Below the pieces are notes generated by a model. It did not search any database. It saw only the letters and a list, made by a program, of their open reading frames with translations, and had not been told where the DNA came from. The position numbers were made by a program, and so were the translations under genes. From Patescibacteria group bacterium (GTDB lineage Bacteria > Patescibacteriota > Minisyncoccia > Minisyncoccales > UBA10102), in NCBI GenBank assembly GCA_022563395.1, contig JADFNM010000001.1, forward strand, positions 398,342 through 462,341: DNA of 64,000 nt, in the 5' to 3' direction. Shown here in pieces: positions 12,485 through 55,438 of the stretch; position 1 is the first letter of the stretch; every line of letters begins with the position of its first letter.

Positions 12485-12485
12485 C

Positions 12486-14058: not shown

Positions 14059-14124
14059 AGAATATAAATAATATCGACTTTTTTACCGTTTCCTTAATGT
14101 TGAACAAAGTAAAACATCAAGGTT

Positions 14125-14144
14125 CTGAGGGGTTTACCCCTCAG
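14125..14144 (-). terminator. hairpin CTGAGGGG-TTTA-CCCCTCAG after pilin 14170-14661 (weak T tail)
   Basis: 8-bp GC-rich stem 25 nt past the stop. The minus-strand tail is AACCTTGATGTTTTAC. Confidence 0.4.
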
Positions 14145-14152
14145 GTTCTTAT

Positions 14153-14344
14153 TATACTTGACTCAAAGCTTACCAACAAGGGCATTGTCCACCGTTGGGG
14201 CTTCCTGGCAGTCCCGGGTTGTAATCCAGCTTGAGGGAACCTTTTTGTGAACCCGCAAACCAGTCCCCTTCTTCAAGCTGTATGTACACGCAATACAACT
14301 GGCTTGAACAATTGGTAGTCAATGTATTCACGTTGTCTATCCAG
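14153..14344. repeat. 192-bp segment identical to 53586-53777 (pilin 3' end + 17 nt downstream)
   Basis: Base-by-base comparison by eye found no mismatch. Identity stops abruptly at 14345/53778. Confidence 0.9.
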
Positions 14345-14661
14345 AGGTAGGTACTCCCTTGAGGGTCTTTTGGGGTTGGGTCTAAGTACTTGCCGTCATC
14401 TACACCATTGCAGGCTGGGGGATTGATGCAGGGAATCTTTGAAGGAAGAGAGGATCCTGCAATCTGGGAGTACAGCTCATCATCCGAATAATCCAGCTCC
14501 ATTGCAAGCGTTATCTGTCGAATGTCAGACTGGCGCCTAGCATCCCTGGCCTTTGCCCGTGCTCCCCCCAGGGACACTAAAATACTGGAAGACAAAATGC
14601 CAATGATAGCTATTACCACCAAGAGCTCAATTAAGGTGAATCCTTTCTGCTTTTGAGACAT
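14170..14661 (-). CDS. type IV pilin (candidate major pilin)
   Basis: MSQKQKG|[18 protein letters not shown]. It is the first pilin after pilC, is followed by a hairpin, and ends in Cys-rich ..GGQCPCW. Confidence 0.9.
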   Translation of the reverse strand: MSQKQKGFTLIELLVVIAIIGILSSSILVSLGGARAKARDARRQSDIRQITLAMELDYSDDELYSQIAGSSLPSKIPCINPPACNGVDDGKYLDPTPKDPQGSTYLWIDNVNTLTTNCSSQLYCVYIQLEEGDWFAGSQKGSLKLDYNPGLPGSPNGGQCPCW

Positions 14662-14673
14662 TGGTTTAGTATA

Positions 14674-15912: not shown

Positions 15913-16013
15913 TTCTGTAATTCATTGATGCAACCATAGAACCCTTGGTGCTTTTCTTTGTGTGAATAATAAAGTTTGCAAACATAGATATAATAATCTC
16001 TAACGGGATTCAT

Positions 16014-17078
16014 TTAGTTTCTTGCCAGAGTTCTGAGTTCTGTTGGGTTCAAGGAGTAGGCAAGGGCATTTTCTAGGGTGATGGTCTTTGAACGAACCAA
16101 GTTTGCCAAGGCCCGGTTCAAAGAAATCATGCCAATTTCAGCAGACGTCTCAATCACCAGGGGAAGCTCGTGAATCTTGTTTTCTCGAATGAGGTTGGCT
16201 ACCGCAGGGTTGGACATCATGATTTCAGCTGCGGGAACCAACCCGCCCCGCACGCTGGGAACCAAGCGCTGAGATACCACGCCCAACAAAGAACCTGACA
16301 GCTGCGCCCTGACCTGAACCTGCTGCGCTGGAGGAAAAGAGTCCACAATGCGGTGAATGGTTTGGGCGGCAGAGTTGGTGTGCAGTGTGGCAAATACCAG
16401 GTGTCCGGTTTCAGCTGCGGTGATGGCGGTGGCTATGGTTTCTGAGTCTCGCATTTCCCCTACCATGATACAGTCTGGGTCTTGGCGGAAAGTGGCGCGC
16501 AAGGCCTTTTCAAAACTCTGGGTGTCCTGATACACCTCTCGCTGGTCAATAATCGACTTGTCGTCTTCAAACACGTACTCGATGGGGTCTTCAATAGTAA
16601 TGATGTGGTCGGCTCTTGTGTGGTTAATCTCGTCAATCAAGGCAGCTAGGGTGGTGGATTTCCCATGGCTGGAAGGACCGGTAATCAATACAAAACCCTG
16701 GCGTGCAGTGGCAAACTTATGAAGTATGGGAGGAAGGTTCAATTCTTCCAGCGTCTTTATCTGCTTTGGGATAAGGCGCAAGGCAGCAGACAAAGAACCC
16801 TGCTGGTAAAACACGTTTATTCGGAACCTGGCCTTATCCTCCATGTTGTACGAAAAGTCCACCTCTTTTTCCTGTTCCAAGCGTACTTTTTGTTCTTCGG
16901 TCATCAAGGAGGTGGCGAGTTCTCTAACGAGGTCTTGTGTCATGGGTCTCTTTTTGACCAAGGGAACCAAGCTCCCTGCAATTCGAAGGGTCGGAGGATG
17001 CCCCAAAGACAAATGTAAATCAGAAGCCGCTTCTTTTACAGTCAGTTCTAATAATTCCTGCATTTGTGTGGTTGGCAT
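16014..17078 (-). CDS. pilT: twitching-motility retraction ATPase
   Basis: 354 aa with Walker A (GPSSHGKSTT), the Asp box, Walker B (DPDCIMVGEMRD) and the His box (GHLVFATLHTNSA). Confidence 0.9.
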   Translation of the reverse strand: MPTTQMQELLELTVKEAASDLHLSLGHPPTLRIAGSLVPLVKKRPMTQDLVRELATSLMTEEQKVRLEQEKEVDFSYNMEDKARFRINVFYQQGSLSAALRLIPKQIKTLEELNLPPILHKFATARQGFVLITGPSSHGKSTTLAALIDEINHTRADHIITIEDPIEYVFEDDKSIIDQREVYQDTQSFEKALRATFRQDPDCIMVGEMRDSETIATAITAAETGHLVFATLHTNSAAQTIHRIVDSFPPAQQVQVRAQLSGSLLGVVSQRLVPSVRGGLVPAAEIMMSNPAVANLIRENKIHELPLVIETSAEIGMISLNRALANLVRSKTITLENALAYSLNPTELRTLARN

Positions 17079-17130
17079 ACAGTTACATTGTTAAATTGTT
17101 ATATGGCTAAATGGCTAACAATTAAACAAT

Positions 17131-17508
17131 TTAACCATTTAACAATTCTTTTACCTCCTCTACTACCTGGGTGGGGGTAAAGTGAGCTTTAATCAGGTAG
17201 CGGTCAGCGCCAAGAGAAATTCCTTTTTCAATCTCTTCTTTTTGCCCAAGGTTAGAGAGTACTACAATCTTTGTGTTCCGCAAGTTTTCTTGTTTTTGAG
17301 CGGCTAGAAGCAATTCCCAGCCGTCCACATGAGGAAGCACAATGTCCATGACAATGACCGAAGGGCTCAGCTTAGAAAACAAGGAAAGCGCCCTTTCTCC
17401 AGAATCTGCCACCTGCACCTTAAATCCAGCTTCTGTAAACTTTGTGGTGTAAATATCAATCAGCAAGGGGTCGTCTTCAACGAGTAAGATAGTATCTTTG
17501 GGGGACAT
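17131..17508 (-). CDS. stand-alone response-regulator receiver (CheY/PilH-like)
   Basis: 125 aa with ILLVEDDPLL, VIVMDIVLPHVDG and VVLSNLG. No output domain, and no histidine kinase in the window. Confidence 0.85.
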   Translation of the reverse strand: MSPKDTILLVEDDPLLIDIYTTKFTEAGFKVQVADSGERALSLFSKLSPSVIVMDIVLPHVDGWELLLAAQKQENLRNTKIVVLSNLGQKEEIEKGISLGADRYLIKAHFTPTQVVEEVKELLNG

Positions 17509-17509
17509 A

Positions 17510-19240
17510 TCAGTCTTCGGTCACGCGAATAACCTCCTCTATTGTTGTTATACCATCAATTGCCTTTAACACGCCATCCTGACGAAGCGTGACCATGCCC
17601 TGGCGCACTGCTTCTTTTGCAATGTTTGCTTCAGACGGAGTTTGAAGAACAATGTCTGAAAGCTCGTCGGTCATTGTAAGCACCTCAAAGAGACCAATCC
17701 TACCACTGTATCCTGCGGCTCCACATTCTTTGCATCCTTTGGCAACAAACAAACTCAGGTCTTTTCCTTTGGTTGCCAGGTGCACGCTCACGGATTTTTC
17801 TTTGGCAGCAGGAATCTTTCTGAGTTCTTGCAAGATGAGCTCTTTCATTTCCGTTTTTGGCTTGATGCGTTCCTTGCAATTATCGCACAAGCGTCTCACC
17901 AAACGTTGGGAAAGGGCAATGTTAAGCGTGGTTGGAACCAGGTACTTGTCCACTCCCATGTCCAAGAGACGAGGGATGACGCCAGAAGCATTGTTCGTAT
18001 GCAAGGTGGAAAGCACAATGTGCCCTGTTAAAGCAGCGTGCACAACAAGGGAGGCCGTCTCTTCGTCTCTAACCTCACCTACCATGATAACGTCTGGGTC
18101 TTGGCGCAGAACCTGGCGTAACCCTTGGGCAAAATCGTATTGAATATCGGGCCTAACCTGGGACTGGTTCACGCCTTCCAAAAGATACTCCACGGGGTCT
18201 TCCAAACTCACAATGTTCAAGGATTCCTTGTTAATACTCTGGAGCATGGCATACAGGGTGGTGGTTTTTCCAGAGCCCGTGGGCCCAGTCACCAAAATCA
18301 ACCCAAAGGGGCGTTTCAAAGCCGCTTGTGCTTTCTCTAAACTGGAACCTCCCAAACCAAGCTCGCCAAAACCCTTTAACCCCACTTCAGGGTCTAAAAC
18401 ACGTATGGCAACCTTTTCTCCTAGGGCAGTGGGAAAAGTGGAAACACGAAAGTCTATAGAGCGCTCTCCAATGTTTGCAGAAAATCTCCCATCCTGTGGT
18501 ACTCGCTGCTCATCAATCTTTAAGTTGGAAAGAATCTTAATGTGCGACACCACGGCTTGGTGAACCCGTTTTGGCAAGAATAAAGAGGAGTACAGGTCCC
18601 CCAGCATGCGAAACCTTACTCTGAGTTTGTCTTTGGTGGGTTCAATGTGAATGTCAGAGGCCTTCCCTTCAACCGCGTTTCTCAAGATGACTGCCACCAT
18701 CTTGGTGACCGGGGCCTCCTCCACCAAACGAGCGAGTTTTTGAGCTTGGTCCTTGCCCTTTTCTTCCTTCATCTCTTCTTGGAGTTCTCCTAAGGCCTGG
18801 CTCATATCGTTCTTTTGGTTTTGATAATGGCGCATGACTGCAGCAAACTGAGAAACAGAGATGAGCTGTATCTGAAACGAAAACCCTCCCTGGCGAGACA
18901 GGAAGTTCAGCGCCTCCTTTGCTTTTACGTCCTCCGGGGCTACCATACCAACCTCAACCACTCCTGCCCGCTTAGACAAGGGAACCATGCGATAGTGAGA
19001 TGCCGCATCCTCGGGGATAAGCTCAAGAATCTTTAAGGGAATGTCTTTGGGCTCAACAGATCTCAAAGGAACCTGCAGTCCCTCTGATTTAACGCTAAAC
19101 AAGAGCTCTTCTTCCACAAGCTTCTTTTCCAAGAGTACTTCCTCAACCAACTTTTGGGACCGAGTTGCCTCCTCTTGGACTTGGGTTGCGGCCTCGCTTA
19201 AAAGAAGATTTCTCTGAACAAGGGTTTGAAGAATGTTCAT
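17510..19240 (-). CDS. pilB: type IV pilus assembly ATPase (GspE/PilB family)
   Basis: 576 aa with an N-terminal T2SSE_N-like domain, Walker A (GPTGSGKTTT) and the CxxC..CxxC tetracysteine motif (CDNCK..CKECG). Confidence 0.9.
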   Translation of the reverse strand: MNILQTLVQRNLLLSEAATQVQEEATRSQKLVEEVLLEKKLVEEELLFSVKSEGLQVPLRSVEPKDIPLKILELIPEDAASHYRMVPLSKRAGVVEVGMVAPEDVKAKEALNFLSRQGGFSFQIQLISVSQFAAVMRHYQNQKNDMSQALGELQEEMKEEKGKDQAQKLARLVEEAPVTKMVAVILRNAVEGKASDIHIEPTKDKLRVRFRMLGDLYSSLFLPKRVHQAVVSHIKILSNLKIDEQRVPQDGRFSANIGERSIDFRVSTFPTALGEKVAIRVLDPEVGLKGFGELGLGGSSLEKAQAALKRPFGLILVTGPTGSGKTTTLYAMLQSINKESLNIVSLEDPVEYLLEGVNQSQVRPDIQYDFAQGLRQVLRQDPDVIMVGEVRDEETASLVVHAALTGHIVLSTLHTNNASGVIPRLLDMGVDKYLVPTTLNIALSQRLVRRLCDNCKERIKPKTEMKELILQELRKIPAAKEKSVSVHLATKGKDLSLFVAKGCKECGAAGYSGRIGLFEVLTMTDELSDIVLQTPSEANIAKEAVRQGMVTLRQDGVLKAIDGITTIEEVIRVTED

Positions 19241-19512
19241 TATAGGGGGGGGAGCAATGGGTTGTCTCGACCAACATCCTGGGGAATTTGCGCTTTTGCC
19301 TCTGCCTCATCTAGTTTTTGGAGTATTGGATGGGAGAGAATGGAGGTATCCACCTCAACCCTGAGGGGCTGGAGAAGGATGTCGCCTGTGGGGAAAGGGG
19401 CTGTCACAAAGAATCCCCACCAGATGACAACTGCGGTAATAAAGACCACTACCCCAAGCGCGAGAATGAGGAGGCGTTGAATCTTCTTTTTCTGGAGAAA
19501 CGTTACTGCCAT
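19240..19512 (-). CDS. small membrane protein of the pilus locus (unknown)
   Basis: 90-aa ORF with a single TM (LLILALGVVVFITAVVIWWGFFV). Its stop overlaps the pilB start. Confidence 0.5.
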   Translation of the reverse strand: MAVTFLQKKKIQRLLILALGVVVFITAVVIWWGFFVTAPFPTGDILLQPLRVEVDTSILSHPILQKLDEAEAKAQIPQDVGRDNPLLPPL

Positions 19513-19530
19513 ATGTGGTTCATATGTTAG

Positions 19531-20046
19531 CTAGTAGAAATAGGTATGAAGCTGCAAAGTTACATTGAACCTTTCGGTCTCTTGGCTCCCAGAAAGGTTC
19601 AGGGATTGAAGAGAAACCATACGAGAAGCGATATTCAAACGTCCCGTCAGTTCTTTTAAAGCACTCCAGGAACCTACAAGCTCAAGTGTCACAGGAATGG
19701 TGCGTAGCTCTAAGGATTGAGCTTGGCTCTCCACTGCAGCTGAAATGTTGCGCAAGGACATTCCAGAAAGTGCGGAGCTCCGCTGCAAAAAGTCGTAGAG
19801 CGAGGGAAGCTGGGGGCCTAAGGGAAGGGCGGCCTCAACCTTTAAAAGCCCTTCTGCAAACTCCGCAAGGCTTGCCTTAACCTTTATCAAATCTGCAAAG
19901 TAGGTTTCCCGGTTTTCCAGCTCTTGCTGGCGGCCTTTAAGTTCAGACCTCAGCTGCTGGAAGGTCTGATAGTTGGGCCAGGTTAAGAAGATGCCTACGG
20001 CAACTCCTATAAAGAGCAGGATTCCAATGAGAAGGGTGCGGTTCAT
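19531..20046 (-). CDS. pilO: PilO-like pilus assembly protein
   Basis: The start is placed at the internal MNRTLLIGILLFIGVAV (20046), which abuts the pilN stop. TM plus coiled coil (QQLRSELKGRQQELENRETYF). Confidence 0.65.
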   Translation of the reverse strand: MNRTLLIGILLFIGVAVGIFLTWPNYQTFQQLRSELKGRQQELENRETYFADLIKVKASLAEFAEGLLKVEAALPLGPQLPSLYDFLQRSSALSGMSLRNISAAVESQAQSLELRTIPVTLELVGSWSALKELTGRLNIASRMVSLQSLNLSGSQETERFNVTLQLHTYFY

Positions 20047-20047
20047 A

Positions 20048-20572
20048 TTATTGAAAGAATGCGGCTGAAAATTGTATTTCCATTTGAAAGTCAACCCCGC
20101 CCTGTCCCCCAAGCTTAAGATTCGTCAGGGAAATGGAGCCTGGTTCTGACCGTGCTTCAAGCACCACAAGCTGTTCATCTAGGGCAGAGAAGGATTCTGC
20201 AGTTCCCCTAAGCTGCACAGTGTGGCTTTGCACATCAACATTCATTGAAAGAAAGGTGACCTCGGGATGTACCACGTTCTCCAAGAAAGAGAATGCGGGA
20301 AGCACGTCCTTTCGAAGCTCTACCAGTGTTGCAAAATCTTTAAGCCTGGTTCGTGCAACAAACATGTCTTGCTCCAGCTGTGCCTGCTCTGGGGTCTTTT
20401 CTGTTCTCAAGAGTATTTCTGCCTCTTTAATCTTGGTTTGAGTTCTTGATTCCAAGAAAAACAAGAGTACAAATCCTCCCACCGAAAGCACAAAGACACC
20501 AATGGACAAGGCAAAGAACACCCTCATGAACAAAGAGGAAGTTTGAGGCACTTTGGGAATGATTTCTACCAT
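20048..20572 (-). CDS. pilN: PilN-like pilus assembly protein
   Basis: 174 aa with a short cytoplasmic N-terminus, one TM and a periplasmic domain. It sits between pilM and pilO. Confidence 0.6.
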   Translation of the reverse strand: MVEIIPKVPQTSSLFMRVFFALSIGVFVLSVGGFVLLFFLESRTQTKIKEAEILLRTEKTPEQAQLEQDMFVARTRLKDFATLVELRKDVLPAFSFLENVVHPEVTFLSMNVDVQSHTVQLRGTAESFSALDEQLVVLEARSEPGSISLTNLKLGGQGGVDFQMEIQFSAAFFQ

Positions 20573-20578
20573 ATATAT

Positions 20579-21631
20579 TTACTCCAGTCCTCGTAATGCC
20601 ATTCCTACTGCGACGCAGTACGAGGGCCCCATCTCTTTTATTGTATCTTCCAACACAGGAGGATAAAAGACAGAACGAAAAGGATCAACGAATTCTATCT
20701 CTTTCTTCAGGCTCTCTTTTAAGTATTCTCTGAGCCCCGGTAGCATTGCGGACCCTCCTCCGAGAACCACCCGTTGAATTTCCTTTTCTCTGAATTCTTG
20801 GATTGCTCTTTGGATTTCCGTCACCACGGTGTCTATCAGAGGACCTAATATAGTCTTGAGTTCTTTTGACAAAAGTCCTTCGGCTATTTTCTTCTCTTCT
20901 GCTTCTTTTCGGCCAATAGACAAGGATTGCGCAATGCGTTCTGAAAGGTTTCCCCCACCAATATCAATAGACCGTGAAGACTGCAGCACTCCTTTTTTAA
21001 CCACATTAATAGTTGTGGTTTGGGCTCCCATGTCCAGCACCACAAGGGAACCTTCTCCATTTTTCAAAGAAGAGCGGATAAGACCAAAAACTTCTGCCTC
21101 TAGAGTTTGAAGCCGCAGCTTGGCCAACTTTGCTATCTCTTGATACTGATTGATTAGCTCGTTGGGGACTGCCACCATTAAAATCTTAATAGGTTCCTTT
21201 GGCAGACCAAGGCGCTTCTTGTTTAAAATCTGCCAGTCAAAGGTCACTTCAGAAAAGGGAATGGGGATGTGTTTTCTCGCCTCGTACTGAACTGCTTCTG
21301 GCAACTCCTCTTTGGTCATCGGAGGAAGCTCAAAGTGTGTGAAAAAGGAAGAGAAGTCCGGAATGGAGAATACCGCGTTCTTGGTCTCAATCTTTGCTTC
21401 CTGCAAAATGCCGCGAAGGGATCTTGCAATGTCTTTTGAAGAAAGGAGCAGGGAACTCTTTTCTGCTGTTCGAAACGGTTTGTCATACAGCATTTCAGAC
21501 CGCATCTCTCCATAGTTCTTCAAGCTTTTTTTTGCGCCCCACCGAGAAAGCTCCACCACCTTAATGGTTGAAGTTCCGATGTCAATGCCAAGAAAGCTTT
21601 TGGGAATAAATTTGAAAGAACCAAGCTTCAT
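20579..21631 (-). CDS. pilM: PilM, actin-like ATPase of the pilus inner-membrane complex
   Basis: 350 aa with LGIDIGTSTIKVVEL, LDMGAQTTTINVV and VLGGGSAMLPGL (ASKHA fold motifs). Confidence 0.85.
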   Translation of the reverse strand: MKLGSFKFIPKSFLGIDIGTSTIKVVELSRWGAKKSLKNYGEMRSEMLYDKPFRTAEKSSLLLSSKDIARSLRGILQEAKIETKNAVFSIPDFSSFFTHFELPPMTKEELPEAVQYEARKHIPIPFSEVTFDWQILNKKRLGLPKEPIKILMVAVPNELINQYQEIAKLAKLRLQTLEAEVFGLIRSSLKNGEGSLVVLDMGAQTTTINVVKKGVLQSSRSIDIGGGNLSERIAQSLSIGRKEAEEKKIAEGLLSKELKTILGPLIDTVVTEIQRAIQEFREKEIQRVVLGGGSAMLPGLREYLKESLKKEIEFVDPFRSVFYPPVLEDTIKEMGPSYCVAVGMALRGLE

Positions 21632-21802
21632 ATATACTCGCTACAGCTCGTTATTCCTTCTGGAATATACTCCCTGCAACTCGTTATTCCTTCTGGAATA
21701 TACTCCCTGCAACTCGTTATTCCTTCTGGAATATACTCCCTGCAACTCGTTATTCCTTCTGGAATATACTCCCTGCAACTCGTTATTCCTTCTGGAATAT
21801 AG
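21632..21802. repeat. 33-bp tandem repeat x5 (CTCGTTATTCCTTCTGGAATATACTCCCTGCAA) abutting the pilM start codon
   Basis: Unit starts are at 21647, 21680, 21713, 21746 and 21779, with degenerate partial copies at both ends. Each unit contains the inverted repeat TATTCC-TTCT-GGAATA. Confidence 0.95.
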
Positions 21803-22597: not shown

Positions 22598-22665
22598 GGC
22601 GGAGGGGGTGAGATTCGCCATATCATTCGATATGGCGCCCTGTCGAATGACAGGGCGAACCTCAC
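22597..22665 (-). ncRNA. twin-hairpin element, copy 1 (candidate structured RNA; T-arm/acceptor-CCA-like flanks)
   Basis: The minus strand reads GTGAGGTTCGCC[CTGTC-ATTC-GACAG]GGCGCC[ATATC-GAAT-GATAT]GGCGAATCTCAC-CCCCTCCG-CCA. A second copy at 31969-32038 has compensatory stem changes. Confidence 0.4.
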
Positions 22666-22910
22666 TTTAATACGTCTCGATATTGCTGTCGAAATAATCT
22701 CTTTCCCTCGGTCGTCTTCAAGAATCGCTCTCTTCTCTGTGCATCGCTCTTCAGGAGGTATGCTTCATATCCTATCAGCTTAAGTGGTCGCAGTGATGTC
22801 GTTGCTCGCACATTTCCGATTTCGTGTTCCTTTGTTCGTCTACGCAAATCGTTCGTAGAACCAGTATAAATCCTCCTATTTCTGAGGCGAAGAAAATATA
22901 CATAGTACAT
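22662..22910 (-). CDS. small GIY-YIG nuclease family protein
   Basis: MYYVYFLRLRNRRIYTGSTNDLRRRTKEH.. carries GIY-YIG, Arg and Glu motifs. The start is trimmed to 22910 because the longer track ORF reads through tRNA-Ser. Confidence 0.8.
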   Translation of the reverse strand: MYYVYFLRLRNRRIYTGSTNDLRRRTKEHEIGNVRATTSLRPLKLIGYEAYLLKSDAQRRERFLKTTEGKRLFRQQYRDVLK

Positions 22911-22913: not shown

Positions 22914-23000
22914 CGGCGGGAGAGGGATTCGAACCCCCGATACCCTTTCAAGTATAGCAGTTTTCAAGACTGCCCCATTCATCCGCTCTGGCATCCCGCC
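22914..23000 (-). tRNA. tRNA-Ser(TGA)
   Basis: Hand fold: acceptor GGCGGGA/TCCCGCC, anticodon arm GCAGT-CTTGAAA-ACTGC, long variable arm, T-loop TTCGAAT. No encoded CCA. Confidence 0.9.
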
Positions 23001-23011: not shown

Positions 23012-23101
23012 TTAAAGCTGGTGGCGGTGGGGGTGGGATTCGAACCCACGAGAGGATTTCTCCCCTAGCACATTAGCAGTGTGCTGCTTTCAACCGCTCA
23101 G
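23012..23101 (-). tRNA. tRNA-Ser(GCT)
   Basis: Acceptor GGTGGGG/CCCCACC, anticodon arm GCACA-CTGCTAA-TGTGC, long variable arm, CCA encoded. Confidence 0.9.
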
Positions 23102-23219
23102 CCACCCCACCTAACTCTTTCTATTCTATCTTATTTCCCGAATATTTCAACCTTTGAATTTCTTCTCGGATTCTGGTATATTCAAAGCGCATATCTCCTT
23201 AAGAAGACTGAGGAGCCAT

Positions 23220-23291
23220 GCTCCCGTAGTTTAACGGACAGAATGAGGGATTGCGGATCCCTTGATACAGGTTCGATTCCTGTCGGGAGCA
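23220..23291 (+). tRNA. tRNA-Arg(GCG)
   Basis: Acceptor GCTCCCG/CGGGAGC, anticodon arm AGGGA-TTGCGGA-TCCCT, T arm ACAGG-TTCGATT-CCTGT. Confidence 0.8.
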
Positions 23292-23292
23292 C

Positions 23293-25377
23293 ATGCAGCT
23301 AACCACTCCTCTCTCTGAAGTTCCACGCATTGGGCCGGTCTACCAGAAGCGACTGAAAACAATGGGGATCACAACTTGCCGTGATCTTCTTTTTCATTTC
23401 CCCAGAATGTATCACGACCTCTCTACCATCACTCCCATTGGAAAAGCAAAGGAGGGTTTTGAATACTGCTTTCAAGGAACCTTGGGAGAGCTTCAAGAAA
23501 TGAGAACATACAGGAAAAGAATATCTGTTGTAGAGGGGGTACTAAGCGACAAAACAGGGAGCATAAAGGTGGTGTGGTTTAACCAGCCCTATCTCAAAGA
23601 CACCCTGTCTTTAAGACAGGAGGTGTTTCTTGCGGGAAAGGTGGTTCGCGACCAAAATGGTATCCATCTTCAAAGCCCAGCGTATGAGAAAATGAGTAGA
23701 AACCCCATTCACATGGCAAGACTCGTTCCCGTGTACCAAGAAACCAGGGGGGTATCTTCAAAGTGGTTGCGCTTTGTCATTCATATGGTTTTAGACTCTC
23801 TTAAAAACATTCAAGACACACTTCCTTCATCCCTACTAAAAGAACGGGGGTTTCCTTCACTCAAGGATGCCTTGTTTTCTATCCACTTCCCAAACAATCC
23901 AAAAGACGCACAGCTCGCAAGGAAACGCTTTTCCTTTGAAGAACTCTTCTTCATTTCTTTGTTTGTCTTAACAGAACGAAAGAAACTTTCTGAAGTAAAG
24001 GCCCCGGTGGTTGCTTATGCCCCAGATATCATGAAGCGCTTCACCTCAAAACTCTCTTTTGAGTTGACCGACGCACAAAAGAAAGCTGCCTGGCACATCT
24101 TGAAAGATATGGAAAAGCCAAGACCAATGAACAGAATCTTGCAAGGGGATGTGGGTTCTGGGAAAACCGTGGTAGCTGCCATGGCCTCTTTGGCTGCAGT
24201 AAAGGCGGGGTATCAGGCTGTACTTATGGCTCCAACAGAGGTTTTAGCCCAGCAGCACTTCAAGACCGTGGGGGAATCACTGGCACTCTTTCGCATAACC
24301 ATTGGCCTTTTAACCGGAAAGACAGACCGATTCATTTCTCCTAAACTTCCCAATGATTCCATTGAGATCTCACGAAAGAAGCTTTTAAAAAGAGTCAAAG
24401 AAGGAACCGTTGACGTTCTCATCGGCACCCACGCCTTAATTCAAGACAAGGTAAAGTTCAACAACCTTGCCTTGGTTATTATTGACGAACAACACCGCTT
24501 TGGCGTACAGCAAAGAAAAAAGCTTCAACACAGATCACAGCTCATTCCTCACTTTCTTTCCATGACCGCAACCCCCATTCCAAGAACGTTGGCAATGAGC
24601 GTGTATGGGGATTTAGACCCCACGATTATTGACGAGCTTCCCAAGGGAAGAAAGAGGATTGAAACCAAGATTGTGGCGCCAGAAGAACGGGCAAAGGCAT
24701 ACAAGTTCATTGCAAAAGAAGTGAAAAAGGGAAGACAGGTGTTTGTGATTTGTCCTCGCATTGAGAAAGTAGAAGAAGGAGAGAAATCAGAATTGAAGAC
24801 CGTAAAAGAGGAGTATGAAAAGCTCTCAAGGGATGTATTCCCTGGCTTTGAAGTTGCAATGCTCCATGGGAAAATGGGGGCGCCAGAAAAAGAACAAATC
24901 ATGCGGCGCTTTAAAAGAGGGAAAACAGACATTCTTGTTTCAACATCGGTTGTAGAGGTGGGGGTGGATATTCCCAATGCCTCCGTCATGATGATTGAGG
25001 GCGCAGACAGGTTTGGGTTGGCCCAACTCCACCAGTTTCGAGGAAGAGTGGGGAGGTCTCGCTATCAATCATACTGCCTCTTGTTTTCAGAATCCAAAAG
25101 CGCCGCAACAAAACAACGCTTAAAAGCTTTACTTGAATCTGAGAACGGATTTCAACTAGCAGAGAGAGACTTAGAGCTCCGCGGCCCGGGAGACTTTTCT
25201 GGAAACAAGCAATGGGGGCTGCCTGACTTTGCCATGAAAAACTTGGCAAACCTTCCCTTGGTTCAAGAAACTAGGGAGGCAGCAGAAAAGCTTTTAGAAC
25301 AAGACATCTCTCTAAAAAACCACCCCTTACTTAAGAAACGAGTAGAAGAGCTCCGAGAGAAGCTGCACTTGGAGTAA
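23293..25377 (+). CDS. recG: ATP-dependent DNA helicase RecG
   Basis: 694 aa with a wedge domain followed by helicase motifs GDVGSGKT, DEQHRFG and SATPIPRT, then QLHQFRGRVGR. Confidence 0.9.
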   Translation: MQLTTPLSEVPRIGPVYQKRLKTMGITTCRDLLFHFPRMYHDLSTITPIGKAKEGFEYCFQGTLGELQEMRTYRKRISVVEGVLSDKTGSIKVVWFNQPYLKDTLSLRQEVFLAGKVVRDQNGIHLQSPAYEKMSRNPIHMARLVPVYQETRGVSSKWLRFVIHMVLDSLKNIQDTLPSSLLKERGFPSLKDALFSIHFPNNPKDAQLARKRFSFEELFFISLFVLTERKKLSEVKAPVVAYAPDIMKRFTSKLSFELTDAQKKAAWHILKDMEKPRPMNRILQGDVGSGKTVVAAMASLAAVKAGYQAVLMAPTEVLAQQHFKTVGESLALFRITIGLLTGKTDRFISPKLPNDSIEISRKKLLKRVKEGTVDVLIGTHALIQDKVKFNNLALVIIDEQHRFGVQQRKKLQHRSQLIPHFLSMTATPIPRTLAMSVYGDLDPTIIDELPKGRKRIETKIVAPEERAKAYKFIAKEVKKGRQVFVICPRIEKVEEGEKSELKTVKEEYEKLSRDVFPGFEVAMLHGKMGAPEKEQIMRRFKRGKTDILVSTSVVEVGVDIPNASVMMIEGADRFGLAQLHQFRGRVGRSRYQSYCLLFSESKSAATKQRLKALLESENGFQLAERDLELRGPGDFSGNKQWGLPDFAMKNLANLPLVQETREAAEKLLEQDISLKNHPLLKKRVEELREKLHLE

Positions 25378-25433: not shown

Positions 25434-26993
25434 TCAACTTCTGTGTTTTGGAGTTACCCAAAAACCAAGGTATTTTCCCAACATCCATCTGGTTTGTGCT
25501 TCCAAAGCAGGGAGCGCCATGAGAAAAATCATGGACAGGGGAAGCAAGATCCACTGGGCAACAAACCAAAAGGCTTTCATCTTGCCAAAGCTCGGCTTTC
25601 GCTTTGGCAGCAGGTACAAGCTCAAGACTCCAGTTCCAATCAGTCCAAGCATGGAAAAGGTGAGCATATTGCTCACAAACCGGGGGAGGTTGTAAGAAAG
25701 TAGAGTTTCAGAAAAAGCGTCTCCTCCCAGCATCAAGGGCAACCAGCCTAAGACAAAGATGAGAAGGGGGGCTGTTGCCCAAGTCCAGTGGCTTTCCAGC
25801 AGCTCAACTCCCAGGGTCAGCTTTCTTCCCAGGGGGATGGTTTTGTCTTTTAAAAACCCAAAAAACACGTATGCTATTTCTCCTACTCCATAGGCCCATC
25901 TTCGGTGCTGCAGATAGATGTTTTTTAGCGTAGTCCACAAACTTTTTGCTGCATTGGCATCCATGGACACAGGGTAATACAAAGACTGCACCTTGTAGTT
26001 TCCCTGATACCTAAAAAAACACTGCCAAAAGATATGTGAGTCGTCATTCACCACGTTGGGGGCACGGAAGTTCACATCCACCAGTGCCTGAAATGACATT
26101 GCATGGGAAGAAAAGGTAATGAGTTTTTCTGGACGCTGTTGGTTCATGGTGTGCCAGAAGGTAGAAGAAAAGGCAAATACTCTTGAAATGGGGGGCGCCT
26201 GCCAAATGTTGTTTAAGTACAAAGGGATTGGCTGAAAGCTGGTGCGGGTTGCATCCGGGGTCGTCAAGTAATACCAAGAAAGGCAGGAGAAATACTGAGG
26301 GTACACCACGGTGTCAGCATCTAAGGAAGAAATGATGATATTTTGATAGGAAATCTTTAATTCGTCAAAATACTCTCTTGCCTTTTTTGCAGCAAACGAT
26401 TCGTTGGAACCTTTTCCGGCTATCTCTCCTTCAATGTTGTCTGGGTGCTCGGTAACCAAAAACTTTGAAAACACACCCCCAAACTCCATCTCAAGAATCG
26501 CTGCCTTCTCTTTTGCGACCTCTCCTTCTCTTTGTTCAATGCCGAGTATCACAACCATTCTGTCTTTTGGATACGAACTGTCTTTCAATGCTTGAAAGGT
26601 AGAACGCAGCACCTCTAAGGGTTCCTTGTATGTTGAAACAACAACAAGGTGCCACAGGTCTTTGAAGGAAGAAACGGGAAGCTGGTACTCTGCCTTTTGC
26701 AAGTTCTTAAGTTCCACAATCCAGTCTTTCTTCTCATTTACTCGCATATGTTGATACCCGGTCCACAAATGAAAGGCGAAGTACAGAGTACGAAGCAAGA
26801 GATAGATTACGAACGCAATCATAAAGAAAGCCACCCAGACTGGCTGCAGCCAGGAAAAGAGAATGGCAAGCGCAAAGGTTCCCCAAGCAAGAATACCCGG
26901 GAGCATTTCTAAGAACCGGTAGAGTCGCCGCTCCACTGTGTTCTTAAGGTCGCCTGCCCTGCCTACATGGGAATAGTTTTCTGGAAGAGACAT
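25434..26993 (-). CDS. processive family-2 glycosyltransferase, membrane-embedded (CesA/Chs-like D,D,D,QxxRW)
   Basis: SLDADT and LQHRRWAYG (QxxRW) with flanking TM helices. The start is trimmed to MSLPENY (26993) because the upstream part of the track ORF is tRNA-Glu. Confidence 0.65.
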   Translation of the reverse strand: MSLPENYSHVGRAGDLKNTVERRLYRFLEMLPGILAWGTFALAILFSWLQPVWVAFFMIAFVIYLLLRTLYFAFHLWTGYQHMRVNEKKDWIVELKNLQKAEYQLPVSSFKDLWHLVVVSTYKEPLEVLRSTFQALKDSSYPKDRMVVILGIEQREGEVAKEKAAILEMEFGGVFSKFLVTEHPDNIEGEIAGKGSNESFAAKKAREYFDELKISYQNIIISSLDADTVVYPQYFSCLSWYYLTTPDATRTSFQPIPLYLNNIWQAPPISRVFAFSSTFWHTMNQQRPEKLITFSSHAMSFQALVDVNFRAPNVVNDDSHIFWQCFFRYQGNYKVQSLYYPVSMDANAAKSLWTTLKNIYLQHRRWAYGVGEIAYVFFGFLKDKTIPLGRKLTLGVELLESHWTWATAPLLIFVLGWLPLMLGGDAFSETLLSYNLPRFVSNMLTFSMLGLIGTGVLSLYLLPKRKPSFGKMKAFWFVAQWILLPLSMIFLMALPALEAQTRWMLGKYLGFWVTPKHRS

Positions 26994-27002: not shown

Positions 27003-27074
27003 TGGCCCCAACGGGAATCGAACCCGTGTTACCACATTGAAAGCGTGGTGTCCTAGCCGTTAGACGATGGGGCC
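27003..27074 (-). tRNA. tRNA-Glu(TTC)
   Basis: GGCCCCATCGTCTAACGG.., anticodon arm CCACG-CTTTCAA-TGTGG, T-loop TTCGATT. Confidence 0.9.
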
Positions 27075-31952: not shown

Positions 31953-31968
31953 GACCCCCCTTTTGCTT

Positions 31969-32038
31969 TGGTGCGCCCGGGAGGATTCGCCCTATGATAA
32001 ACATAGGGCGCCCCGTGTTCATCACGGGGCGAACCTCA
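31969..32038 (-). ncRNA. twin-hairpin element, copy 2 (candidate structured RNA), 8 nt after tRNA-Leu(TAG)
   Basis: The minus strand reads GAGGTTCGCC[CCGTG-ATGAA-CACGG]GGCGCC[CTATG-TTTAT-CATAG]GGCGAATCCTC-CCGGGCGC-ACCA. Confidence 0.4.
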
Positions 32039-32045
32039 TGTGATG

Positions 32046-32127
32046 TGGGCAGGGTGGGAGTTGAACCCACAAGCCTTGCGGCGCTAGCTCCTAAAGCTAG
32101 TGCGTTTGCCAGTTTCGCCACCTGCCC
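32046..32127 (-). tRNA. tRNA-Leu(TAG)
   Basis: Acceptor GGGCAGG/CCTGCCC, anticodon arm CTAGC-TTTAGGA-GCTAG, long variable arm. Confidence 0.9.
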
Positions 32128-32149
32128 AGCGCTTTGAATATAGCTGAAA

Positions 32150-32187
32150 ATTGAGAGAAAAACAATACAGCGAGGGAATTCCCTCGC
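32150..32187 (-). terminator. terminator GCGAGGGAATTCCCTCGC + T-rich tail after the mini-pilin cluster
   Basis: 18-bp perfect palindrome at 32170-32187. The minus-strand tail is TGTATTGTTTTTCTCTC. Confidence 0.7.
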
Positions 32188-44458: not shown

Positions 44459-46297
44459 ATGAAAAACCTAGGCAAAAACCTTTTCTTTGTCATCCTGATC
44501 TTCTTAGCAATCTCGGTTTTGTTTGCTGCGTTTGCTAAACCCTTTGAGCAAAAGGACGTCATTTCCTTGACGCAACTGGTCGCAGATATTGAGGCAGGAA
44601 GCATAGAAAAGGTAAGCGTTACAACAGGTGAACTGAACATTACCTATAAAGAAGAGGGAGTTGAGAAAACCTCAATGAAAGAGCAGGACGCAGCTCTTAG
44701 CGAAACCCTGCTTAACCTTGGCCTTTCAAGGGAAGCCCTGGCAGGGGTAGAAATTGAGACCAAAAAAGAGACCGGCATTTTAATCTGGCTGGCTCCTTTA
44801 TCTTTTATCCTTCTTCCCCTTCTATTGTTTGCTTTCTTCTTCTTCTTTATCTTCCGTCAAGCAAAAGCAGGATTGGGCCAGGCCTTTGACTTTACCAGGG
44901 CAAAAGCGCGGCTGTTTGGCGCTGAAGGAACGAGCAAGGAACGCATCACCTTCAAAGATGTTGCGGGGTTAAAAGAAGCAAAAGAAGAACTCAATGAAGT
45001 TGTGGACTTTTTAAAAAACCCTAGAAAGTACCTGCAGATGGGGGCTAAAATCCCACGAGGTGTTCTCTTGATTGGTCCCCCGGGCACAGGAAAAACCTTG
45101 CTGGCAAGAGCCGTGGCAAACGAGGCCGGCGTTCCCTTCTTTTCTGCTTCTGGGTCTGAGTTCATTGAAATGTTTGTGGGAGTTGGTTCCTCGAGAGTAA
45201 GAGATCTTTTCTCCACAGCAAAAAAGGCAGGACGCAGCATTATCTTTATTGACGAGCTGGACGCCATTGGCAGGCAGCGGGGATTCGGGTTTGGGGGAGG
45301 ACATGACGAACGAGAACAAACCTTAAACCAGATTTTAGTGGAGATGGACGGTTTTGAAAGGGATTCCACCACCATTGTGATTGCTGCCACCAACAGGCCA
45401 GACGTGCTGGACCCGGCTTTGTTGCGTCCCGGAAGGTTTGACCGGAGAATCATGCTTGACTTGCCAGATATTAATGACCGGGAGGCAATCTTGAAAATTC
45501 ACGGCAGGGGAAAGCCTTTGGCTCAAAACACCAACTTAAGAGAGGTAGCTGAACGCACTCCAGGGTTTGCGGGAGCCGATTTGGAAAACTTAATGAATGA
45601 GGCTGCCATCTTTGCTGCACGCAGAAACAAACTGCAAATTAGCCAGGAAGAACTGCTGGAATCCATTGACAAGGTGCTCTTGGGCCCCGAACGAAAGAGC
45701 CATGTCTTGAGCAAAAAAGAAAAGGAGATTACCGCCTTTCATGAAGCAGGCCATGCTTTGGTAGCTTCCTTAGTTCCTCATGGAGATCCGGTACGCAAGG
45801 TTTCCATTATTTCCCGGGGAAGAGCAGGAGGATATACTTTAAAACTTCCAAGCGAGGAGAAACACTTAAAAACCAAGGCAGAGTTTCTCTCAGACTTAGC
45901 GGTGCTGCTCGGTGGGTATGCAGCAGAACGACTCAAGTTTAAAGAAATTACCACCGGGTCCTCCAATGATTTGGAAAAGGCAACTGAAATTGCGCGCTCT
46001 CTGATAAAACAGTTCGGCATGTCAGAAAAGCTCGGCCCTGTCACCTTTGGGGAGCGCGACGATACAATAATGTTTCTGGGAAGAAGGGGGCCCGAAACCC
46101 AGAACTATTCAGAAAAGGTAGCAGAGGAGATAGACAAAGAAGTGGCAAAACTCTTAGAAAATGCCAGAAAGACTGCAGAAAAAATCCTGAGAAAAAAGAA
46201 AGCAACCCTTGAAAAGATAGCCAGGATTCTGATAGAAAAGGAGACGATAGAACGGGAAGAGTTTGAGAAAATAGTAGGCAAGAAACAAAGGAAATAA
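44459..46297 (+). CDS. ftsH: ATP-dependent zinc metalloprotease FtsH
   Basis: 612 aa with two N-terminal TMs, the AAA+ Walker A (GPPGTGKT), SRH, and the HEAGHA zinc site. Confidence 0.95.
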
Positions 46298-46323: not shown

Positions 46324-46327
46324 ATGA

Positions 46328-46400
46328 GGGCACGTAGCTCAATGGTTAGAGCACCAAGCTTATACCTTGGCGGTTCCTGGTTCGAGTCCAGGCGTGCCCA
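46328..46400 (+). tRNA. tRNA-Ile(TAT)
   Basis: Acceptor GGGCACG/CGTGCCC, anticodon arm CCAAG-CTTATAC-CTTGG (anticodon UAU), T-loop TTCGAGT. Confidence 0.85.
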
Positions 46401-46413: not shown

Positions 46414-46490
46414 GGGCGGTTAGCTCATTTGGTTAGAGCGTCACATTGACATTGTGAAGGTGACAGGTTCGATCCCTGTACCGCCCACCA
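46414..46490 (+). tRNA. tRNA-Val(GAC)
   Basis: Acceptor GGGCGGT/ACCGCCC, anticodon arm TCACA-TTGACAT-TGTGA, CCA encoded. Confidence 0.9.
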
Positions 46491-47131
46491 TGAGCTTGAA
46501 TATTCTCTTTGAAAATGCTACACTCCAGGTTGTAGACAAACCTGCTGGCATTGATATTGAGGGAATACAGAAACTCTTGCCAGAAGGTTTTTCTCCAGCG
46601 CACCGCTTAGACAAAGACACATCGGGAGTACTCTTGGTGGCAAAAACAAGAGATGCTCTCGAGTACTTTAGAGGACAGTTCCAAACAAGAAAGATACAAA
46701 AAACCTACCTTTGTTTAGTACAAGGCAATGTAAGAAAAGAACAAGGAGAGATTGAAGCACTGTTGGGGAGATCCCCAAACGACCGCAGAAAACAAAAAGT
46801 GTTCTTGCCGGGGGAACCTGGGGCTGAAGGAAAACGGGAAGCCAGCAGCAAATACCGGGTACTCAAACAATATCAAGGATATGCCTTCTTAGAGGTAAAA
46901 CCCAAGACAGGGAGAAAGCATCAGATCAGGATACATCTCAGCCACCTTGGCCATCCCATTGCAGGAGATAGGCTCTATGGATTTAAAGGCCAACAGGTTC
47001 CAAAAGGACTCAACAGACAATTCCTTCATGCGCACTCATTGCAGCTCACCATGCCAGATGGGACTACCAAAGAATTCACGTCAGAATTATCAGAGGATTT
47101 ACAAGAAGTTCTCATGAAACTTAAAACATGA
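46490..47131 (+). CDS. RluA-family pseudouridine synthase (no S4 domain)
   Basis: [16 protein letters not shown] and [24 protein letters not shown]. The ATG at 46490 shares its A with the CCA end of tRNA-Val. Confidence 0.85.
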
Positions 47132-47186
47132 AACGCGAAACCTTATTTTTATGTTTCACGCTTCACGTTGCATGCTTCAAGACATT

Positions 47187-47630
47187 ATGACCACAAAGCT
47201 AGAAGCAGTAGCGAATATGACACTAAAACAAAACGTGCCCGACGTTCGACCAGGCGACGTGATTCGGGTACACCAAAAAATCAAGGAAGGGGGCAAAGAA
47301 AGAATCCAGGTATTTGAGGGTATAGTGCTTGCCAAAAAGCATGGCAAGGGAATCACGAGCACCGTTACCGTAAGAAAGATAACCCAGGGCGTTGGGGTTG
47401 AGCGAATCTTCCCTTTGCACTCACCCTTGATTGACAAAATTGAGATTGTACGAAGGTCTAAGGTAAGAAGAGCAAAGCTTTATTACCTACGGGAAGCTAA
47501 AGGAAGAAAGGCGCGGCTCAAAGCAAAAGCTTTCAATCTGGAAGTCCCAGAAAAGGAACCCCAGAAAGAAGTGCCAGCACCAAAAGAACCTGTCGAGGAA
47601 CAATCTGCTGAAGAAGAGAAAGCTGCTTAA
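47187..47630 (+). CDS. rplS: 50S ribosomal protein L19 with acidic C-terminal extension
   Basis: [59 protein letters not shown]. The start is uncertain (47151-47187). Confidence 0.9.
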
Positions 47631-47635: not shown

Positions 47636-47723
47636 GCGGACGTGGTGGAATTGGCGAGACACGCAAGCTTGAGGGGCTTGTGGGAGCAATCCCGTGGAGG
47701 TTCGAGTCCTCTCGTCCGCACCA
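47636..47723 (+). tRNA. tRNA-Leu(GAG)
   Basis: Acceptor GCGGACG/CGTCCGC, anticodon arm CAAGC-TTGAGGG-GCTTG, long variable arm, CCA encoded. Confidence 0.9.
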
Positions 47724-47731: not shown

Positions 47732-47806
47732 GGGCAGCTAGCTCAACGGTAGAGCATCGCGTTTACATCGCGGGGGTTACGGGTTCAAATCCTGTGCTGC
47801 CCACCA
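47732..47806 (+). tRNA. tRNA-Val(TAC)
   Basis: Acceptor GGGCAGC/GCTGCCC, anticodon arm TCGCG-TTTACAT-CGCGG, CCA encoded. Confidence 0.9.
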
Positions 47807-47811: not shown

Positions 47812-48225
47812 ATGGGACAAAACGATCAAATCTTCTACGTCGGCTTGAAAGCTTTTATTGCCGATGGAGAAAAACTTCTCATCGTCCAGGACCAAGATGG
47901 ACAGTGGGAGTTGCCGGGTGGTAAAGTTCAGATTGAGGAAGATGTAGCAGCTGCATTAAGCCGAGAAGTAAGAGAGGAGATTGGAGAGAGTGCAGACATT
48001 GAAATCGGCTCTGCGTTTCATGCGTGGATACGACAACCACACCCGGACCTAAAGTTCCTTCTGTTTTTGGTAGGTTTCCGTTGTTTCTGGAAAAGAGGTG
48101 AAATCTCGATAAGCCCTGAACACAAGAACTTTCGCTGGATTACCAAAGAAGAAGTTGATAGCATAGGCTTTGAAAATACGTATAAAGATGCTATAAAGTA
48201 TTATTTCCAGAGCCTTGAAAAATAA
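47812..48225 (+). CDS. NUDIX hydrolase
   Basis: Nudix box GGKVQIEEDVAAALSREVREEIGE. The start is trimmed to ATG 47812 because the upstream part of the track ORF is two tRNAs. Confidence 0.85.
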   Translation: MGQNDQIFYVGLKAFIADGEKLLIVQDQDGQWELPGGKVQIEEDVAAALSREVREEIGESADIEIGSAFHAWIRQPHPDLKFLLFLVGFRCFWKRGEISISPEHKNFRWITKEEVDSIGFENTYKDAIKYYFQSLEK

Positions 48226-48229: not shown

Positions 48230-48301
48230 GCCGCGGTAGCTCAGTGGTAGAGCAGTGGCTTGAAGAGCCTCGTGTCGAGTGTTCAATTCACTCCCGCGGC
48301 A
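48230..48301 (+). tRNA. tRNA-Phe(GAA)
   Basis: Acceptor GCCGCGG/CCGCGGC, anticodon loop TTGAAGA (one T-T mismatch in the stem), T arm GAGTG-TTCAATT-CACTC. Confidence 0.85.
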
Positions 48302-48399: not shown

Positions 48400-48474
48400 G
48401 CGGGCGTGGTATAGTGGCTATTATGAGTCGTTGCCAACGACTAGACGGCAGTTCGATTCTGCTCGCCCGCTCCA
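48400..48474 (+). tRNA. tRNA-Gly(GCC)
   Basis: Acceptor GCGGGCG/CGCCCGC, anticodon arm AGTCG-TTGCCAA-CGACT, CCA encoded. Confidence 0.9.
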
Positions 48475-48484: not shown

Positions 48485-48510
48485 CGCCCCAGAAGGGGCG
48501 GTTTTGTGTT
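48485..48510 (+). terminator. rho-independent terminator after the tRNA cluster
   Basis: CGCCCC-agaa-GGGGCG followed by GTTTTGTGTT. Confidence 0.7.
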
Positions 48511-55261: not shown

Positions 55262-55343
55262 TGCCGAGGGAGAGATTCGAACTCTCACGCCATTGCTGGC
55301 AGGGATTTTAAGTCCCCCGTGTATACCGTTCCACCACCCCGGC
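55262..55343 (-). tRNA. tRNA-Leu(TAA)
   Basis: Acceptor GCCGGGG/CCCTCGGC region, anticodon arm GGGGA-CTTAAAA-TCCCT, long variable arm. Confidence 0.9.
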
Positions 55344-55363
55344 AAACTTAATCTCGTTAAGTT
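55344..55363. repeat. AT palindrome AAACTTAATCTCGTTAAGTTT filling the whole 20-nt gap between two tRNAs
   Basis: It runs from the 5' end of tRNA-Leu to the CCA end of tRNA-Cys. Confidence 0.85.
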
Positions 55364-55438
55364 TGGAGGCACAGGCGAGAATCGAACCCGCTCATAGGAG
55401 TTTTGCAGACTCCTGGCTTCCCATTTGCCTACTGTGCC
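55364..55438 (-). tRNA. tRNA-Cys(GCA)
   Basis: Acceptor GGCACAG/CTGTGCC, anticodon arm GGAGT-CTGCAAA-ACTCC, CCA encoded. Confidence 0.9.

Follow-up and report, generated by a model that had tools for sequence, protein, structure and literature searches.

Start codons that abut tRNA genes in a Patescibacteria genome: evidence consistent with a bacterial form of tRNA punctuation

The tRNA punctuation model was reportedly put forward for animal mitochondrial DNA by Ojala, Montoya, and Attardi in 1981. On bacterial chromosomes tRNAs and mRNAs can also share an operon, and in the mixed operons of E. coli the spacer between them is about 100 nt long and carries a Shine-Dalgarno (SD) sequence. Such operons, e.g. 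thrU-tyrU-glyT-thrT-tufB and secG-leuU, yield a shared transcript, which RNase P or RNase E splits into tRNA and mRNA (PMC2241853). Leaderless mRNAs are described in Actinobacteria and Deinococcus (PMC4633059, PMC4007540, PMC3848588), and a subgroup of Parcubacteria is reported to lack the anti-SD motif (Tsurumaki et al. 2022, PMC9297842). The present analysis concerns a 64-kb stretch (the window) of contig JADFNM010000001.1 from a Patescibacteria group bacterium, in which five protein-coding genes start at, or within a few nucleotides of, the 3' end of a tRNA gene on the same strand. The closest named relatives of the window RecG, as judged by NCBI protein comparison, are Candidatus Wildermuthbacteria, in Parcubacteria.

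Sixteen tRNA genes, forming nine clusters, were found in the window by both ARAGORN and Rfam; protein domains were assigned with Pfam and NCBIfam profiles and structured RNAs with Rfam. The five same-strand junctions between a tRNA and a coding sequence (CDS) were taken directly from the nucleotide sequence, the gap being the number of nucleotides that separate the ATG from the discriminator base of the tRNA, and the gaps so defined are 1, 2, 3, 8, and 9 nt. An initial annotation of this DNA had described five nearly gapless junctions, and ARAGORN, Rfam, and reading of the sequence agree with it in every coordinate. The genes concerned are as follows, each tRNA being followed by the CDS that abuts it.

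23220..23291, plus strand: tRNA-Arg(GCG), no encoded CCA; discriminator A at 23291, C74 at 23292 (ARAGORN, Rfam)
23293..25377, plus strand: recG, 694 aa, ATG at 23293, immediately after C74; gap 1 nt
22914..23000, minus strand: tRNA-Ser(TGA), no encoded CCA; discriminator at 22914, then spacer cac (ARAGORN, Rfam)
22662..22910, minus strand: GIY-YIG domain protein, 82 aa (Pfam), ATG at 22910; gap 3 nt
27003..27074, minus strand: tRNA-Glu(TTC); discriminator at 27003, then spacer ccttatttt (ARAGORN, Rfam)
25434..26993, minus strand: membrane protein with GT2-like motifs (DAD, QHRRW in the translation), 519 aa, ATG at 26993; gap 9 nt
46414..46490, plus strand: tRNA-Val(GAC); discriminator at 46487, encoded CCA at 46488-46490, A76 being the A of the next ATG
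46490..47131, plus strand: RluA-family pseudouridine synthase (rluA-like), 213 aa, no S4 domain (profile matches); one-base overlap with the tRNA
47732..47806, plus strand: tRNA-Val(TAC), encoded CCA ending at 47806, then spacer aaagc (ARAGORN, Rfam)
47812..48225, plus strand: NUDIX hydrolase, 137 aa, ATG at 47812, 5 nt after the CCA; stop 4 nt before tRNA-Phe

The name GT2, given in the initial annotation to the protein behind tRNA-Glu, is based only on the two motifs in its translation; neither Pfam nor NCBIfam returned a family for it, and it is accordingly called GT2-like here.

The abutments are more frequent than expected by chance. An ATG opening at least 80 codons lies within -3 to +12 nt of 4.7% of random positions in the window, and such an ATG is found at five of the nine tRNA-cluster 3' ends (P = 2.5e-5). 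In Patescibacteria loci, an ATG opening at least 100 codons lies within 12 nt of 24 of 86 tRNA-cluster ends, most of these cases being orthologous junctions; the control, for which the divergent side of tRNA 5' ends was taken, gave 1 of 71. The initial annotation had envisaged a genome-wide tally of tRNA-to-ATG distances against random expectation; the tallies made here cover the window and related loci.

The junctions recur in relatives, which were compared locus by locus (with labels such as L081). At tRNA-Arg(GCG)-recG the arrangement AC-ATG, i.e. discriminator, C, and start codon, is identical in the window and in L081, L082, L090, and L095, over a range of RecG identity from 81% down to 51%. 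The tRNA-Arg-recG gap is 5-12 nt in seven more loci and 19-300 nt in eight, some of the latter having their own TANNNT (-10) box 6-8 nt before the ATG. Between tRNA-Glu and the GT2-like gene lie 1-9 nt in eight loci, namely the window, L082, L083, L086, L087, L091, L007, and L012. L110 and L112 share the gene order ftsH-tRNA-Ile-tRNA-Val-rluA-rplS-tRNA-Leu-tRNA-Val-nudix with the window; L110 (80% identity) and L111 (58%) also have the overlap of CCA and ATG between tRNA-Val(GAC) and rluA, and L112 has CCA-tc-ATG at this position. The GIY-YIG gene stands behind tRNA-Ser(TGA) in the window genome only, so that junction is recent. An unrelated further case, in which tRNA-Met is followed at +1 by an open reading frame of 377 aa, is present in L010. 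As judged by the sequences compared, tRNA-abutting start codons are a real and conserved feature.

The signals at which translation starts in this genome bear directly on how such genes might be expressed. SD-like tetramers were sought at -16 to -5 of 59 window starts, with all other window ATGs as controls, and occur at 10% of the starts and 10.7% of the controls. The -10 box TANNNT ending 5-9 nt before the ATG, taken as the signature of leaderless transcription, is found at 20 of the same 59 starts (34%) compared with 6.8% of controls (P = 3e-9). Both tests were rerun automatically on four sets, comparing starts with internal ATGs in each.

Window: SD-like 7% at starts, 11% at internal ATGs; TANNNT 34% and 6%
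Wildermuth-like relatives: SD-like 4% and 7%; TANNNT 23% and 8.5%
Other Patescibacteria: SD-like 15% and 7%; TANNNT 29% and 6%
Loci from outside the Candidate Phyla Radiation (CPR), the positive control: SD-like 32% and 9%; TANNNT 11% and 5.5%

The non-CPR loci came from a search of genome contigs by RecG alignment, were mostly of distant phyla among the matches listed, and serve only as a positive control for SD. Relatives in which recG is distant from the tRNA have TANNNT at leaderless spacing in only about three of eight cases, which equals the genome average and is uninformative. No gene class in the window has SD enrichment. The initial annotation had pointed out that none of the five starts has room for an SD sequence, which is true at all five junctions; the argument is weak, however, because the genome has no SD signal anywhere, and so lack of room does not set these genes apart. 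The sole SD-like motif at the five genes is a fortuitous GGGAG in the acceptor stem of tRNA-Arg, at -8 to -4; the idea of an SD sequence hidden in the tRNA 3' half was rejected, since GGGAG is not conserved in relatives.

There is no 16S rRNA gene within the window, and the 16S rRNA tail was read from a related Patescibacteria locus, L004, which has a complete 16S rRNA (1408 bits) with the 3' end ...GGAACAAUUAUUUU and the tail ...GCGUGGAACAAUUAUUUU, in which there is no CCUCC anti-SD. The L004 gene (2321-4032) is 1712 nt long compared with a 1533-position model, and so probably contains an insertion. From these sequences, and in agreement with Tsurumaki et al. 2022 (PMC9297842), it appears that translation in this lineage does not use SD sites and starts largely at AUGs that stand at the 5' end. 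Separately, the window IF2 (55778-57307) is just 509 aa long and begins directly at the GTPase domain, with no long N-terminal region.

The arrangement upstream of the tRNAs, and between them and neighboring genes, involves the following further features.

23112..23219, no strand assigned: region of divergent promoters that separates the tRNA-Ser pair (minus) from tRNA-Arg (plus) (promoter scan, sequence)
23025..23111, minus strand: tRNA-Ser(GCT), at the head of the minus-strand unit (ARAGORN, Rfam)
44459..46297, plus strand: ftsH, first CDS of the putative tRNA-punctuated operon (Pfam; synteny with L110, L112)
46328..46400, plus strand: tRNA-Ile(TAT) (ARAGORN, Rfam)
47151..47630, plus strand: rplS (ribosomal protein L19), stop 5 nt before tRNA-Leu
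47636..47720, plus strand: tRNA-Leu(GAG) (ARAGORN, Rfam)
48230..48301, plus strand: tRNA-Phe(GAA) (ARAGORN, Rfam)
48400..48471, plus strand: tRNA-Gly(GCC), last gene of the unit (ARAGORN, Rfam)
48485..48500, no strand assigned: GC-rich hairpin (CGCCCCAGAAGGGGCG) with a T-rich tract behind it, listed by the terminator scan for the minus strand
55262..55438, minus strand: tRNA-Cys and tRNA-Leu(TAA), 1 nt after the rbfA stop (infB-rbfA-tRNA-tRNA)

Sigma-70-like promoters are predicted upstream of the tRNAs, the clearest being the promoter-like TTGAAT-17-TG.TATATT at 23154-23182 (plus), which lies close to a promoter-like TTGAAA-16-TAGAAT on the other strand (23150-23123, minus). Promoter and terminator scans between tRNA and CDS returned nothing at the five junctions. 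The initial annotation had named separate downstream promoters as an observation that would count against its model, and the sequence scan revealed no -10 box between tRNA and CDS. On the other side of the tRNAs, the gaps from stop codon to tRNA are 5 nt (rplS), 4 nt (NUDIX), and 1 nt (rbfA), a pattern kept in L110, and the tRNAs would thus be true punctuation inside operons. The hairpin at 48485..48500 is the probable terminator of the operon. Elsewhere in the window a TATATT -10-like box is present 9 nt ahead of the start of tRNA-Leu(TAG) (32127-32150, minus), the same TATATTCAAAGCGC string occurring upstream of tRNA-Arg, and transcription may therefore begin at, or within 1-2 bases of, the mature tRNA 5' end.

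The initial annotation had likened the junctions to mitochondrial tRNA punctuation, and this remains the best available reading, partly supported by the sequence. We consider it probable, while leaving appreciable room for doubt, that the genes are co-transcribed from the tRNA promoter and that a cut at the 3' end of the tRNA leaves an mRNA with little or no leader. All the features that sequence can address fit it, namely the junctions with their start codons, the lack of a box or terminator between tRNA and CDS, the promoter-like sites upstream, the tight stop-to-tRNA gaps, the lack of SD signals, the leaderless-type promoter signature, and the conservation; from them we infer that tRNA and CDS share a transcript, where and by which enzyme it is cut, and that the processed RNA is translated. 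Under the model, a tRNA or tRNA pair and the abutting CDS would be transcribed as one RNA from an upstream sigma-70-type promoter, and ftsH-tRNA-tRNA-rluA-rplS-tRNA-tRNA-nudix-tRNA-tRNA would be one long operon. RNase P would cut at the tRNA 5' end, so also forming the 3' end of the upstream mRNA, 1-5 nt past its stop codon. A 3' endonuclease would cut at or just after the discriminator (after N73 or C74), and the CCA-adding enzyme would then finish the tRNA; since CCA is not encoded in 10 of the 16 tRNAs, the endonuclease is probably RNase Z-like. The freed mRNA would have a 5'-monophosphate, 0-9 nt ahead of the AUG, and would be translated by 5'-end-dependent (leaderless) initiation, as appears to be the case in this genome for genes with a -10 box 5-9 nt before the ATG. 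In a lineage with no apparent ribosome-binding sites, tRNA excision thus probably creates the translatable mRNA end, rather as in mitochondria. Inferences from ribosome structure point the same way: unless the tRNA is removed, its folded acceptor stem, only 1-3 nt away from the AUG, should keep ribosomes from loading.

The 3' ends of the tRNAs offer a hint as to where the cut may fall. CCA is encoded in only 6 of the 16 window tRNAs, and a CCA-adding enzyme is therefore required. A C at position 74 starts the trailer of all 16, of 52 of 53 tRNAs in the Wildermuth-like relatives, and of 42 of 48 in other Patescibacteria; it is also present in all 13 non-CPR tRNAs sampled, so the feature may not be specific. 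No CDS reaches upstream of C74, apart from the case in which A76 also serves as the A of the ATG, and the precursors are predicted to fold with their acceptor stems kept. The universal C74 suggests either 3' cleavage after C74 or a need for C74 in the precursor. If the cut is after C74, the recG mRNA would start exactly at its AUG, and leaders of 1-2 nt would be left downstream of tRNA-Val(GAC) and tRNA-Ser(TGA). A broader proposal, which we put forward only tentatively and hold to be rather doubtful, is that in Parcubacteria lacking the anti-SD, tRNA 3' maturation is a systematic and selected maker of mRNA 5' ends, cutting after the universal C74 and conserved across a large uncultivated clade.

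The window set of anticodons is unusual in another respect. Bacteria normally have a tRNA-Arg with the anticodon ACG (inosine) and a CAU tRNA-Ile with lysidine; here the anticodons are GCG for tRNA-Arg (23220-23291) and UAU for tRNA-Ile (46328-46400), both conserved in relatives (L002-L098, L110-L112). This set hints that TadA and TilS are absent.

Several points weigh against the punctuation model. Gaps of 100-300 nt between tRNA-Arg and recG in several relatives imply that a tight junction is not obligatory, and the gaps of 8-9 nt at tRNA-Glu and tRNA-Val(TAC) are short leaders, i.e. the mRNAs concerned are not truly leaderless. In model bacteria (B. subtilis, E. coli) an encoded CCA inhibits RNase Z, which complicates the two CCA-bearing tRNA-Val junctions. 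Cleavage inside CCA followed by repair has a precedent in P. acnes (PMC3848588), and overlapping mitochondrial tRNAs are repaired (PMC4787750). A 5'-monophosphate mRNA end would be a substrate for RNase J, and CPR bacteria retain both RNase J and PNPase (PMC12641178). Finally, the gaps between tRNA and CDS in the window (1, 2, 3, 8, 9, 64, and 180 nt) are not significantly tighter than those of CDS-CDS pairs (Fisher P = 0.09), and compaction alone could therefore yield the abutment.

The last point raises the alternative that the abutments are a by-product of genome compaction, with ribosomes entering internally and independently of SD on any RNA fragments that happen to form, such that no precise tRNA 3' cut is needed. 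Gaps between CDSs on the same strand are bimodal in the window, with 12 of 36 pairs at 6 nt or less and a median of 33, and gaps between tRNA and CDS among relatives range from 0 to 300 nt. Tight packing alone is thus ordinary in this genome; the unusual part is that at a tRNA there is no upstream ribosome available for reinitiation, whereas adjacent CDSs may use termination-reinitiation. With a folded acceptor stem predicted so near the AUG (1-3 nt), neither 30S nor 70S ribosomes should be able to load until it is removed, and identical AC-ATG and CCAtg junctions are found in lineages with proteins only ~50-80% identical. On balance, compaction without processing is an unlikely explanation.

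It may be instead that tRNA and mRNA are alternative products of one precursor, matured at the tRNA 3' end exonucleolytically or imprecisely, the junction then acting as a switch or attenuator. Such an arrangement is most apt at the CCA/ATG overlap, where the A of CCA is the A of ATG at 46490, and it would accord both with the retention of PNPase and RNase J in CPR genomes (PMC12641178) and with the consideration that strong tRNA promoters would otherwise be expected to over-express recG and similar genes. A cut after N73 or C74 with CCA repair would, however, give both products from one transcript, for which the P. acnes and mitochondrial cases are precedents (PMC3848588, PMC4787750), and CCA addition is needed by 10 of the 16 tRNAs anyway. 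Mutually exclusive products thus seem improbable.

A further alternative is that the start codons are mis-called and that the true starts, with signals of their own, are farther downstream. Some gene callers do pick Met-24 of RecG, and a TTG two codons into rluA (46496 in the window) is present as a possible alternative start in all four loci examined. Yet the first 23 residues of RecG (MxLxTPLSEVPRIGPVYQKRLK) are kept in more than 100 homologues, the DNA changes across these N-terminal codons are synonymous between loci, and there is no in-frame start upstream of the recG ATG. Residue 1 of the GIY-YIG protein aligns with Pfam profile position 1; the Pfam NUDIX domain runs from residue 15, which corresponds to profile position 9; and the N-termini of the RluA-like protein (M[SN]LNILFE) and of the GT2-like protein (MSLPENYSHVGRA.DL) are conserved among homologues and related loci, respectively. 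Identical starts are called for rluA, rplS, and NUDIX in independent assemblies, and RecG and RluA have NCBI proteins of equal length. Homologue N-termini and Pfam profile boundaries, taken together, support all five start codons, and the initial annotation's own caveat, that the true starts might lie further downstream, is not borne out by them; in rluA the TTG, itself just 6 nt from the tRNA CCA, may be the start instead. That the starts are mis-called is accordingly very improbable.

These comparisons have a practical side, in that public annotation of tRNA-abutting genes can be wrong in either direction, by read-through extension or by truncation to a downstream Met. Some public protein calls run N-terminally through the tRNA T-arm up to the conserved Met, giving extensions such as ...EVRFLSGAH-M and ...AGSNPAGDT-M in RecG and ...GSNPVPPT-M in RluA; other callers cut RecG back to Met-24, e.g. 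in P0008 and P0015. The RecG and RluA public homologues with inconsistent calls are P0008, P0015, P0039, P0058, P0064, P0065, P0067, P0074, P0081, P0097, P0167, P0208, and P0221.

Promoters inside the tRNA genes, giving primary leaderless mRNAs that start at the ATG, would suit a genome in which leaderless-type promoters are common, but were rejected as highly improbable: TANNNT at leaderless spacing within the tRNA 3' half is found at none of the five junctions, the region is constrained as T-arm and acceptor stem, and the promoter scan found nothing there.

Some further features of the window lie outside this argument. A 15-bp palindrome, CTTAAT-N3-ATTAAG, has 12 sites in the window (24 strand matches compared with 0.9 expected), including 46308-46322, 48524-48558, 58652-58686, 60052-60086, 41091-41105, 41185-41199, 55347-55361, 11106-11120, and 11289-11303, often as tandem pairs 20 bp apart and in intergenic or promoter regions. 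Two copies stand 3 nt upstream of a tRNA gene, namely of tRNA-Ile (palindrome 46306-46324) and of tRNA-Leu(TAA); L110 keeps the palindrome before tRNA-Ile, though its loop differs. The palindrome may act as an RNA hairpin or as an operator for a global regulator. Inserts that are GC-rich (59-66%) and fold strongly are found beside tRNAs at 48302-48399, 57724-57787, and 31955-32044. The first is between tRNA-Phe and tRNA-Gly, where L110 has a spacer of 11 nt; the second, behind tRNA-Ser(CGA), weakly resembles the first in reverse complement; the third, behind tRNA-Leu(TAG), has an end (...GCGCACCA) that resembles the 3' end of a tRNA, and four relatives lack it. The inserts have no Rfam match and are not one clear repeat family.

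The FtsH of Parcubacteria bacterium Greene0714_21 (L112 and L113, 664-3882) is 1072 aa long and has an intein with a LAGLIDADG domain, the window FtsH being 612 aa. The NUDIX protein (47812-48225) bears a weak likeness to RppH RNA pyrophosphohydrolase models (E ~1e-6, far below the cut-offs). A type IV pilus-like gene cluster occupies 10200-21640 on the minus strand, with a Pfam match for PilM at 20579-21631; several short open reading frames within it read as pilin-like, from the start of their nucleotide sequence only. The last 4 kb of the window (region 58900-64000) have 35% GC and adjoin a gene with a SIR2-like domain (58927-59955).

If the punctuation model is correct, three traits that mostly occur apart, i.e. 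the loss of SD/anti-SD pairing, initiation that depends on the mRNA 5' end, and the making of such ends by tRNA processing, would be united in one large uncultivated clade; mitochondrion-style punctuation would be seen to arise on a bacterial chromosome under genome reduction; and there would be a concrete, testable model for how translation starts in CPR bacteria. The open-access literature gave no description of tRNA-abutting start codons or tRNA-generated leaderless mRNAs in CPR bacteria, an absence that is not proof.

The likeness to mitochondria extends to several features. In both, tRNA genes flank mRNAs at 0 to a few nucleotides on both sides, the mRNAs have, or here would have, little or no 5' leader and no SD, and excision of the tRNAs would set both the 5' and 3' ends of the mRNAs; a one-base overlap, of which there is one case here, would need 3'-end repair. 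Unlike the mitochondrial situation, the chromosome here is a free bacterial one on which promoters are numerous, punctuation affects only part of the genes, no stop codon is left incomplete, and some tRNAs encode CCA. The enzymes would presumably be bacterial RNase P RNA and RNase Z.

With regard to bacteria, the mixed operons of E. coli resemble the present arrangement in that tRNA and mRNA would be on one transcript. They differ in that the spacer here is only 0-9 nt and without SD, such that the cut itself would set the translatable 5' end. As with the leaderless genes of Actinobacteria and Deinococcus, SD use is weak or absent, the leaderless signature being found here in about one third of genes; by contrast, the 5' ends there are primary (triphosphate), whereas the ends next to tRNAs in this genome would be monophosphate ends left by processing. 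The same broad lineage is the subject of Tsurumaki et al. 2022 (PMC9297842), and the L004 16S tail without CCUCC and the lack of SD enrichment in the window fit with passages of that work, which do not describe the initiation mechanism or tRNA-CDS junctions. The nearest analogue of the junctions is mitochondrial tRNA punctuation, and their nearest bacterial relatives are the mixed tRNA-mRNA operons.

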